Positions 45,410 through 47,974 of a DNA stretch of 64,000 nt are shown here, one piece after another. The stretch lies in NCBI RefSeq assembly GCF_013167455.1, contig NZ_CP038328.1, one strand, 5' to 3'. Within the stretch, counting starts at the first letter, position 1, and the number at the start of each line of letters is the position of its first letter. The stretch comes from Escherichia coli O157:H7. Lineage in GTDB: Bacteria > Pseudomonadota > Gammaproteobacteria > Enterobacterales > Enterobacteriaceae. The translations under genes and the position numbers were made by a program. The notes beneath the pieces were generated by a model. That model did no database searches. It was not told the origin of the DNA and saw only the letters and a list, made by a program, of their open reading frames with translations.

Positions 45410-47974
45410 ATGTCAACTCCACTTCAAGGAATTAAAGTTCTCGATTTCACCGGTGTGCAATCTGGCCCATCTTGTACTCAAATGCTGGCCTGGTTTGGCG
45501 CTGACGTCATTAAAATTGAACGCCCCGGCGTTGGTGACGTAACGCGTCACCAGCTGCGAGATATTCCTGATATCGATGCGCTTTACTTCACCATGCTTAA
45601 CAGTAACAAACGTTCTATTGAGTTAAATACCAAAACAGCGGAAGGCAAAGAGGTAATGGAAAAGCTGATCTGAACCGCCCCGGGTTTCCTGGAGAGTGTT
45701 TTATCTGTGAACTCAGGCTGCCAGATCATCGTTTCCGATGGAAGCATAATAAGCTTTTTCTGCTTCTGCCGGAGGAGTATGGCCCAGCCTTCCCAGCAAT
45801 CGTCGATTGTTATACCAGTCCACCCACGTTAGTGTGGCCAGTTCCACTTCTGCACGGTTTTTCCAGCTCTTACGGTGTATTACCTCCGCTTTGTAAAGAC
45901 CATTGATGCTCTCAGCCATCGCGTTGTCATACGAGTCGCCTGTACTCCCTGTTGATGCCAGTAATCCGGCTTCTTTTAGTCGCTCCGTATAGGCCAGTGA
46001 CACATACTGAGAGCCTTTATCGCTGTGATGGATGGTGCCAGACGGACGACGGGCCCACAACGCCTGCTCCAGCGCATCCAGCACGAATGTCGTTTCCATA
46101 GACGATGAGACCCGCCACCCCACGATGTATCCGGCAAACACATCAATGATAAACGCCACATAGACGAAGCCCTGCCATGTGCTGACGTAAGTAAAATCAG
46201 CCACCCACAGCTGGTCAGGTCGTTCTGCCACGAACTGACGGTTTACGCGGTCGCCTGCGGCAACGGCTTTCCGGCTGATGGTCGTACGGACCTTTTTACC
46301 CCGGAGAACACCGGCAAGTCCCATAACCGCCATGAGACGTGCCACTGTACATCTGGCCACCCTGATTCCTTCCCGTAACAACTGACGCCAGACTTTACGC
46401 ACACCGTACACCTGATGATTTTCATCGTATACGCGCTGTATCTCTCTCTTCAGCCAGTCGTCGTGCTGCGCACGGGCACTGCGTTTATCCGGATGATGTC
46501 GCTGTTGCTGACAATGGTAATACGTTGACGGGGCAATATGCAGTTCGCTGCATACCGGTCCGACCCCGTACTGCTCACGCAGCTTATCCAGCAGTGGCAT
46601 CATTTTTTCCAGAGGCGGTCGAACTCCGCCTTCGCAAAATAAGCGGAAGCCTGGCGAAGGATATCGTTACTGCGGCGCAGTTCACGATTTTCACGTTCCA
46701 GCTCTTTCAGACGCTGACGTTCAGCGCTGGTGAGCCCACCATCACCGCCCCCGGTATCCCGCTCATGCTGGCGAACCCAGACACGCAGAGTCTCCGGCGT
46801 ACAGCCAATCTTTGGGGCAATGGAACAAATTGCCGCCCACTGTGAGTCATATTCATCCTGACTTTCCAGAACCATACGAATCGCCCGCTGACGGACTTCG
46901 GGGGAAAAACGAGTATTTTTAGTCATCCTGTTTACCTCTTTCTCAGGGAGTTTAGTCTCCAGGATTTCCGGGGCGGTTCAGATCCGCGAAGCTGATATCT
47001 TAGTCGAGAACTTTCATCCAGGGGCCATTGATCACATGGGCTTCACCTGGGAGCATATTCAAGAAATCAATCCACGTCTGATTTTTGGTTCGATCAAAGG
47101 GTTTGATGAGTGTTCGCCTTATGTGAATGTAAAAGCCTATGAAAACGTTGCTCAGGCAGCGGGTGGCGCGGCATCCACTACGGGTTTTTGGGACGGTCCG
47201 CCGCTGGTAAGCGCTGCAGCGTTGGGTGACAGCAACACCGGAATGCATTTACTGATCGGTTTACTTGCTGCTTTGCTGCATCGCGAAAAAACGGGGCGTG
47301 GGCAACGAGTCACCATGTCAATGCAGGATGCCGTATTGAACCTTTGCCGCGTGAAATTACGCGACCAGCAGCGTCTCGATAAATTGGGTTATCTGGAAGA
47401 ATACCCGCAGTATCCGAATGGCACATTTGGTGATGCAGTTCCCCGCGGAGGTAATGCGGGTGGTGGCGGTCAGCCTGGCTGGATCCTGAAATGTAAAGGC
47501 TGGGAAACTGATCCTAACGCCTATATTTATTTCACTATTCAGGAGCAAAACTGGGAAAACACCTGTAAAGCCATCGGCAAACCAGATTGGATTACCGATC
47601 CGGCATACAGTACAGCCCATGCCCGACAGCCACATATTTTCGATATTTTTGCTGAAATCGAAAAATACACTGTCACTATTGATAAACATGAAGCAGTGGC
47701 TTATTTGACTCAGTTTGATATTCCTTGTGCACCGGTTTTAAGTATGAAAGAAATTTCACTTGATCCCTCTTTACGCCAAAGCGGCAGTGTTGTCGAAGTG
47801 GAACAACCATTGCGTGGAAAATATCTGACAGTTGGTTGTCCAATGAAATTCTCTGCCTTTACGCCGGATATTAAAGCTGCGCCTCTATTAGGTGAACATA
47901 CCGCTGCGGTATTGCAGGAGCTGGGTTATAGCGACGATGAAATTGCTGCAATGAAGCAAAACCACGCCATCTGA
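45410..47974 (+). pseudogene. frc: Formyl-CoA:oxalate CoA-transferase gene frc (yfdW) disrupted by IS629
   Basis: N-terminal 87 codons (45410..45670, ...EVMEKLI) and the remainder (46981..47974, starting within [24 protein letters not shown]...) are separated by a 1310-bp IS; the reading frame is continuous once the IS and one TSD copy are removed. Confidence 0.88.
45671..46980 (-). mobile_element. IS629 (IS3 family), copy B, 1310 bp
   Basis: terminal IRs TGAACCGCCCCGGGTTTCC...GGATTTCCGGGGCGGTTCA; orfB 45713..46603, orfA 46600..46926 ([29 protein letters not shown]...); flanked by GATC/ATC duplication. Confidence 0.9.

Follow-up and report, generated by a model that had tools for sequence, protein, structure and literature searches.

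The window analysed here, a 64,000-nucleotide stretch of Escherichia coli O157:H7 (contig NZ_CP038328.1), carries the insertion sequence (IS) IS629 at three places: inside another element, IS609, inside frc and inside emrY, the last two on either side of evgAS. IS629-type termini number exactly six in the window and delimit three complete 1310-bp copies, which we call A, B and C (Table 1). Our comparison of these copies with a compilation of IS629 insertion sites suggests, with a probability that we put at about 75%, that they are ordinary IS629 insertions made by a transposase that chooses targets nearly at random under a weak, two-fold symmetric base bias, and that the ATC triplet preceding both copy B and copy C is not a recognition triplet.

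No base differs between copies B and C, and both match, at 100% identity over 1310 bp, elements labelled 'insertion sequence:IS629' in phage CP-1639 and in several Stx2 phages of O157:H7 (records with such labels include AJ304858.2 and AP012530). Copy A is 95.3% identical to B and C and, judged by its sequence, is best regarded as a divergent isoform or subtype of IS629; its exact OrfB occurs in O157:H7 EC4115 and TW14359. All three copies have imperfect terminal inverted repeats, TGAACCGCCCCGG...CCGGGGCGGTTCA, starting with TG and ending in CA, and each contains two overlapping reading frames, orfA (108 amino acids, helix-turn-helix) and orfB (295/296 amino acids, rve/DDE). An ALIL pseudoknot, a frameshift-stimulating RNA, is placed at the orfA/orfB overlap of copy B, and RefSeq labels identical IS629 copies 'programmed frameshift'; a protein identical to the orfB product of copy B occurs in 441 indexed blocks of the public collection. 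In their length of ~1.3 kb, their TG...CA repeats, their orfA/orfB frameshift layout, their near-identity to IS629 and their 3-4-bp duplications, the window copies are ordinary insertions of IS629, a member of the IS3 family.

The junctions (slashes mark the IS ends) read ...GCATTC/IS/TTCCGC for copy A; ...AAGCTGATC/TGAACCGCC...GGCGGTTCA/GATCCGCGA, in short ...CTGATC/IS/GATCCGC, for copy B; and ...ACAGGTATC/IS/ATCATTTTG, in short ...GGTATC/IS/ATCATT, for copy C. They are as the initial annotation wrote them, and the interval that it gave for copy B, 45667-46984, is that copy with one GATC on each side. Its statement that copy A duplicated TTC is borne out. Its further statement that B and C both duplicate ATC, B possibly GATC, holds for C; for B only a 4-bp duplication of GATC is self-consistent, because the three bases that end the left flank (ATC) are not those that open the right flank (GAT). 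Both copies have minus-strand orientation; read along the element itself, the duplication is GATC for B and GAT for C.

Empty sites were rebuilt by taking out the IS together with one repeat copy. Over 400 nt, the rebuilt frc site (with a single GATC; ...AAGCTGATCCGCGAAG...) and the rebuilt emrY site (with a single ATC; ...ACAGGTATCATTTTGC...) match the respective intact O157:H7 gene at 100%; at a coverage of at least 80%, they are found in 5,400 and 5,381 of 5,426 complete E. coli genomes, respectively. The empty site of copy A reads g-C-a-[TTC]-c-G-c.

Table 1. Positions in the 64-kb window of the IS629 copies, their target duplications and the features of copy B.
Feature	Position	Strand	Remarks
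IS629 copy A	18584-19893	+	1310 bp, complete; within insQ/tnpB of IS609 beside gltX
TTC duplication of copy A, left	18581-18583		
TTC duplication of copy A, right	19894-19896		
IS629 copy B	45671-46980	-	1310 bp, complete; within frc, after codon 87
GATC duplication (4 bp) of copy B, left	45667-45670		
GATC duplication (4 bp) of copy B, right	46981-46984		
Outer target positions of site B	C-T at 45665-45666, C-G at 46985-46986		empty site C-T-[GATC]-C-G
orfA of copy B	46600-46926	-	108 amino acids, helix-turn-helix; Pfam PF01527 on identical protein
orfB of copy B	45713-46603	-	296 amino acids, DDE/rve; PF13276, PF00665, PF13683 on identical protein
ALIL pseudoknot of copy B	46529-46645	-	Rfam RF01497, 121.5 bits vs gathering score 50, E 1e-32
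IS629 copy C	58902-60211	-	1310 bp, complete; within emrY, after ~codon 368 of 512
ATC duplication of copy C, left	58899-58901		GAT in IS orientation
ATC duplication of copy C, right	60212-60214		

Two sites would have the same triplet 5' of the IS with a probability of 1.7% given the composition of the window, or 2.7% given the measured distribution of IS629 sites; over the three possible pairs this becomes ~5-8%, and the coincidence within the window is therefore not significant alone. The question was also addressed with a compilation of IS629 insertion sites. IS629 ends were gathered with the pattern TGAACCGCCCCGGNWWTCCTGGAGA from viral contigs, species-representative genomes and metagenome contigs, and 30 further loci were taken from complete genomes via exact matches to IS629 proteins. 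Ends were kept when identity to copy A or B over their first 80 bases was 90% or more, and flanks differing at no more than 3 of 20 bases were merged, leaving 207 left-end flanks, 178 right-end flanks and 80 full copies, all unique. Most of what the scan of species-representative genomes yielded came from mis-binned contigs or from related elements in other genera; it was filtered by IS629 identity, and the related elements were kept as a separate comparison. Four added viral scans, which brought the set to 133 unique full copies, had been split by the base adjacent to the IS; they were used for geometry only and not for frequencies, since the splitting biases that base. Duplications are carried by 49 of the 80 unique full copies (45 of 3 bp and 4 of 4 bp; 30 copies are without), and the enlarged set holds 73 duplications of 3 bp and 7 of 4 bp.

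ATC is indeed enriched in this compilation. It is the commonest triplet before the left end (19/207, or 9.2%, vs 1.9% in the background; p 2e-8), after the right end (12/178; p 1.5e-4) and among the 3-bp duplications (5/45; p 7e-4). AAC (15) and TAC (13) come close to it, and ~90% of IS629 sites are not ATC; an obligatory ATC target was rejected on these counts. GAT, the triplet of copy C in the element's orientation, occurs at 7/207 left and 5/178 right ends, an enrichment that is not significant. Compared with the product of single-position frequencies, ATC shows a slight excess at the left end (19 observed, 10.5 expected; p 0.01, uncorrected). Targeting directed by Dam methylation sites was also rejected: among the 16 left flanks ending in ATC that had been compiled at that point, only 4 have a preceding G, which is the chance level, and GATC is absent from the 7 external 4-bp duplications.

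What the sites share is a degenerate motif that extends beyond the duplication. The consensus of the empty sites, 5'-C-N-[G/N-W-C]-H-G-3', is a 7-bp near-palindrome centred on the duplication, and its strongest positions lie outside it, with C two bases upstream (u2) and G two bases downstream (d2). In the pooled half-sites read toward the IS (n=385), C is found at -5 in 44% (p 4e-19) and at -1 in 41% (p 2e-14), and G at -2 (13%) and C at -4 (14%) are depleted. The preferences mirror each other across the site: C at u2 and G at d2, C at t3 and G at t1, depletion of C at u1 and of G at d1. Of the two half-sites, the one joined to the left end shows the stronger preference (G at d2 in 50% and C at t3 in 44%, vs 38% and 36% for the right end). 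ATC is the commonest duplication because it fits this stronger half-site (W-C). The motif is seen again in each of the three independent sources (viral, genome and metagenome), and distal flank positions of the compiled sites are flat, without comparable signal.

Two further comparisons bear on the motif. Elements of Mixta, Martelella, Kosakonia and others (L121-L222) share the 25-bp IS629 terminal pattern and are less than 80% identical further in; their flanks have C at -5 in 49%, C at -1 in 45% and G at -6 in 45%, and the signal is present in 55 flanks of elements less than 80% related from other genera. Shifted duplications were sought among the IS629 copies without a duplication and none was found, and the IS ends are therefore correctly placed. 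Copies without a duplication, 49 of the 133 in the enlarged set, carry the half-site signal on both flanks, with C at -5 in 22/49 and G at +5 in 28/49, as expected if the two flanks stem from different insertions, via recombination or adjacent deletion.

In sites with a 4-bp duplication, the outer C and G stay two bases outside the duplication and thus shift by one base relative to the IS ends: C at -6 is found in 6/7 four-bp sites vs 13/73 three-bp sites (Fisher p 5e-4), and G at +6 in 5/7 vs 5/73 (p 2e-4), while C at -5 and G at +5 fall to 0/7. The empty site of copy B is a perfect match to the 4-bp form, C-N-[G-W-W-C]-N-G. When a cut-relative weight matrix built from external flanks alone was used to score all IS-free window positions in both orientations, site A fell at the 99.85th percentile of the target model and site B at the 99.99th, with 11 of 120,072 candidate 4-bp sites scoring as high (an earlier matrix, with outer positions anchored to the IS ends, had put this 4-bp site at the 91st percentile and was replaced by the cut-relative one). 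Site C reached only the 64th percentile, and the 90th in the opposite orientation. Copies A and B thus occupy sites in the top 0.2%, and copy C an average site in its less favoured orientation. In 31 held-out sites the median percentile is 82, with 42% of them above the 90th; the motif carries only ~1 bit of information, and ordinary sites like that of copy C are therefore common.

By analogy with other IS3-family elements, -1 frameshifting between orfA and orfB would produce the transposase that copies the element out as a circle; the two 3'-OH ends of the circle would attack the target strands 3 bp, rarely 4 bp, apart; and repair of this staggered attack would leave the 3- or 4-bp duplication. 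On each strand, as the compiled sites show, the cut falls by preference two bases 3' of a C, with the 3' end of the IS joined to G-W, and an outer C and G one base further apart go with a 4-bp stagger, as at the frc site. We infer that the base bias arises from contacts between the transpososome and the target, and that the spacing between C and G selects the stagger. The more specific proposal, that in IS629 and its relatives strands are cut at 5'-C-N/G-W, that the distance between the outer C and G sets a 3- or a 4-bp duplication and that the left-end half-site is read more stringently, would be a previously unreported rule; we advance it tentatively, at somewhat less than even odds. If it holds, the length of the duplication would be predictable from sequence, and the published statement that IS629 sites show no pattern would be contradicted.

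Several points weigh against the reading of a weak symmetric bias. The 3- vs 4-bp spacing rule is based on seven external sites and copy B. The sites analysed are those of existing insertions, which have passed through selection and assembly, rather than of fresh transposition events. In the metagenome subset (L223-L342), C at +3 after the right end is found in only 7/53 sites and C at -1 before the left end in 25/57, although the two should agree given 3-bp duplications. With ~1 bit of information, prediction of any single site is poor, as copy C illustrates. Finally, a comparison of 47 IS629 sites by Rump et al. (2011) revealed no pattern in the 25 bp flanking the element at each end (PMC3271280).

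Within 18248-20769, copy A splits insQ/tnpB of IS609, an element of the IS200/IS605 family that Sakai has in intact form. The frc reading frame (45410-45673) runs into copy B and stops there. Between copies A and B, 24.9 kb of backbone match O157:H7, Sakai included, at 100% identity, and the backbone of the window as a whole is likewise 100% identical to Sakai and many other O157:H7 strains. None of the junctions of copies A, B and C was found among 5,426 complete E. coli genomes; the three insertions, which lie within 42 kb, are thus strain-specific. Calling frc and emrY EvgA-regulon genes, as had been done initially, is fair: EvgA directly activates the yfdX promoter, upstream of frc, and emrKY is regulated by EvgA-EvgS (PMC5706723 and its reference 4). 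Copies B and C, identical and in the same orientation, bracket 11.9 kb with oxc-yfdV-yfdE-evgS-evgA-emrK. The segment is a composite-transposon-like unit, and the pair lends itself readily to recombination, which would delete the EvgAS acid-response regulator. In the gene cluster to which frc belongs, the downstream gene yfdE is annotated as frameshifted in the O157-like reference strain 2017C-4109 (L343 20026-21167).

An independent IS629 insertion lies in the same neighbourhood in E. coli 13TMH22, a urine isolate from Hong Kong. It reads ...GCGGTATC/IS/ATCTGT, with duplication of ATC, and corresponds to window positions ~43172-43174 in the lpxP-yfdY spacer, 2.5 kb from the site of copy B (L351 1623-2932; L375 7470-8683). 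The flank GGTATC at this insertion is similar to the one beside copy C.

That IS629 recognises ATC as such and inserts directly after it would be in line with the top rank of this triplet at both ends and among the duplications, with its slight excess over independent positions and with the ATC duplicated in 13TMH22. We nevertheless consider it unlikely: ATC makes up just 9% of the left flanks and 11% of the duplications, with AAC and TAC nearly equal to it; the strongest positions, -5 and +5, lie outside the triplet; and, of the window copies, B duplicated GATC, C has the unenriched GAT in IS orientation and A used TTC. At the other extreme, the sites might show no sequence preference at all, the shared ATC and the consensus both being chance or a sampling artefact, as would fit the negative comparison of Rump et al. 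(PMC3271280) and the modest in-window coincidence (p ~0.02-0.08). The present data contradict this reading, the least probable of all, for position-specific deviations reach p 1e-14 to 1e-19 after de-duplication, and they are replicated in three sources, in elements of other genera and in held-out sites, with distal positions flat.

It is also possible, though improbable as the main explanation, that the sites were chosen by regional effects or by selection, i.e. by local hopping or through a gain from inactivating EvgA-controlled genes. The clustering of three copies whose junctions are absent from the searched genomes, the identity of B and C on either side of evgAS, the nearby insertion in 13TMH22 and the activation of the yfdX promoter and emrKY by EvgA (PMC5706723 and its reference 4) all point in that direction. 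However, 14 of 69 full-length IS629 matches among the contigs fetched at that point are also 100% identical to copy B, so that identity is no proof that C derives from B, and selection cannot give rise to a preference for particular bases at set distances from the ends of the IS. Such effects could act alongside a sequence bias. A weak symmetric bias with nearly random targeting is thus the reading that we retain. The short target preference suggested by the initial annotation does exist, with ATC as its commonest outcome, but its rule is a degenerate symmetric motif rather than insertion after ATC, and the ATC common to B and C is largely a by-product of that motif together with coincidence.

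Weak palindromic target consensus sequences are familiar in DDE transposases and retroviral integrases, among them Tn10/IS10 (NGCTNAGCN), Tn5, Mu and the integrases of human immunodeficiency virus and murine leukaemia virus. IS629 resembles these systems in its two-fold symmetry about staggered cuts, its low information and its reach of a few bases beyond the duplication; it differs from them in its shorter stagger (3, sometimes 4 bp), in its unequal halves, of which the left-end half is the stronger, and in that the outer C and G appear to track the length of the stagger. Strict short targets, such as the TA of IS630/Tc1 and the NCTAGN of IS481, are near-obligatory; IS629 is like these elements in that a short sequence is over-represented at the duplication, and unlike them in that ATC is found in only ~10% of insertions. 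Within the IS3 family, IS2 and IS911 pass through a figure-of-eight and then a minicircle before a symmetric attack on the target, with a duplication length equal to the junction spacer, and curvature of the target DNA has been proposed for IS2 (PMC3299598), as opposed to the base consensus found here for IS629; the window copies would follow the same pathway by family analogy.

The window copies agree with described IS629 (= IS1203v; O157:H7, Shigella) in their 1310 bp, TG...CA repeats, orfA/orfB -1 frameshift and 3-4-bp duplications, and depart from it in their sites (IS609 insQ, frc and emrY), unoccupied in all of the complete genomes searched, and in the 4.7% difference of copy A. Rump et al. 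(2011) reported 3-4-bp duplications at 21/47 IS629 sites, stated that the specificity 'remains unknown' and remarked that the duplications examined by Ooka et al. (2009) had been found to be more alike (PMC3271280). The literature that we could read thus calls the target specificity unknown, and our compilation gives a weak consensus; this consensus is new relative to Rump et al. (2011), but may have been described earlier by Ooka et al. (2009) (Genome Res 19:1809).

As IS629 and its 3-4-bp duplications are already known, the gain is incremental rather than conceptual. The verified empty sites provide exact polymerase chain reaction assays for frc::IS629 and emrY::IS629, insertions on the two sides of evgAS that are predicted to abolish functions in oxalate-dependent acid tolerance and to inactivate the EmrKY pump. 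Small-scale diversification of O157:H7 genomes is driven mainly by IS629, which also underlies strain typing by IS-printing. A measured target model, though weak, would refine the expectation of where new insertions are placed, would help to tell independent insertions at the same site from shared ancestry, and would explain the occasional 4-bp duplications.

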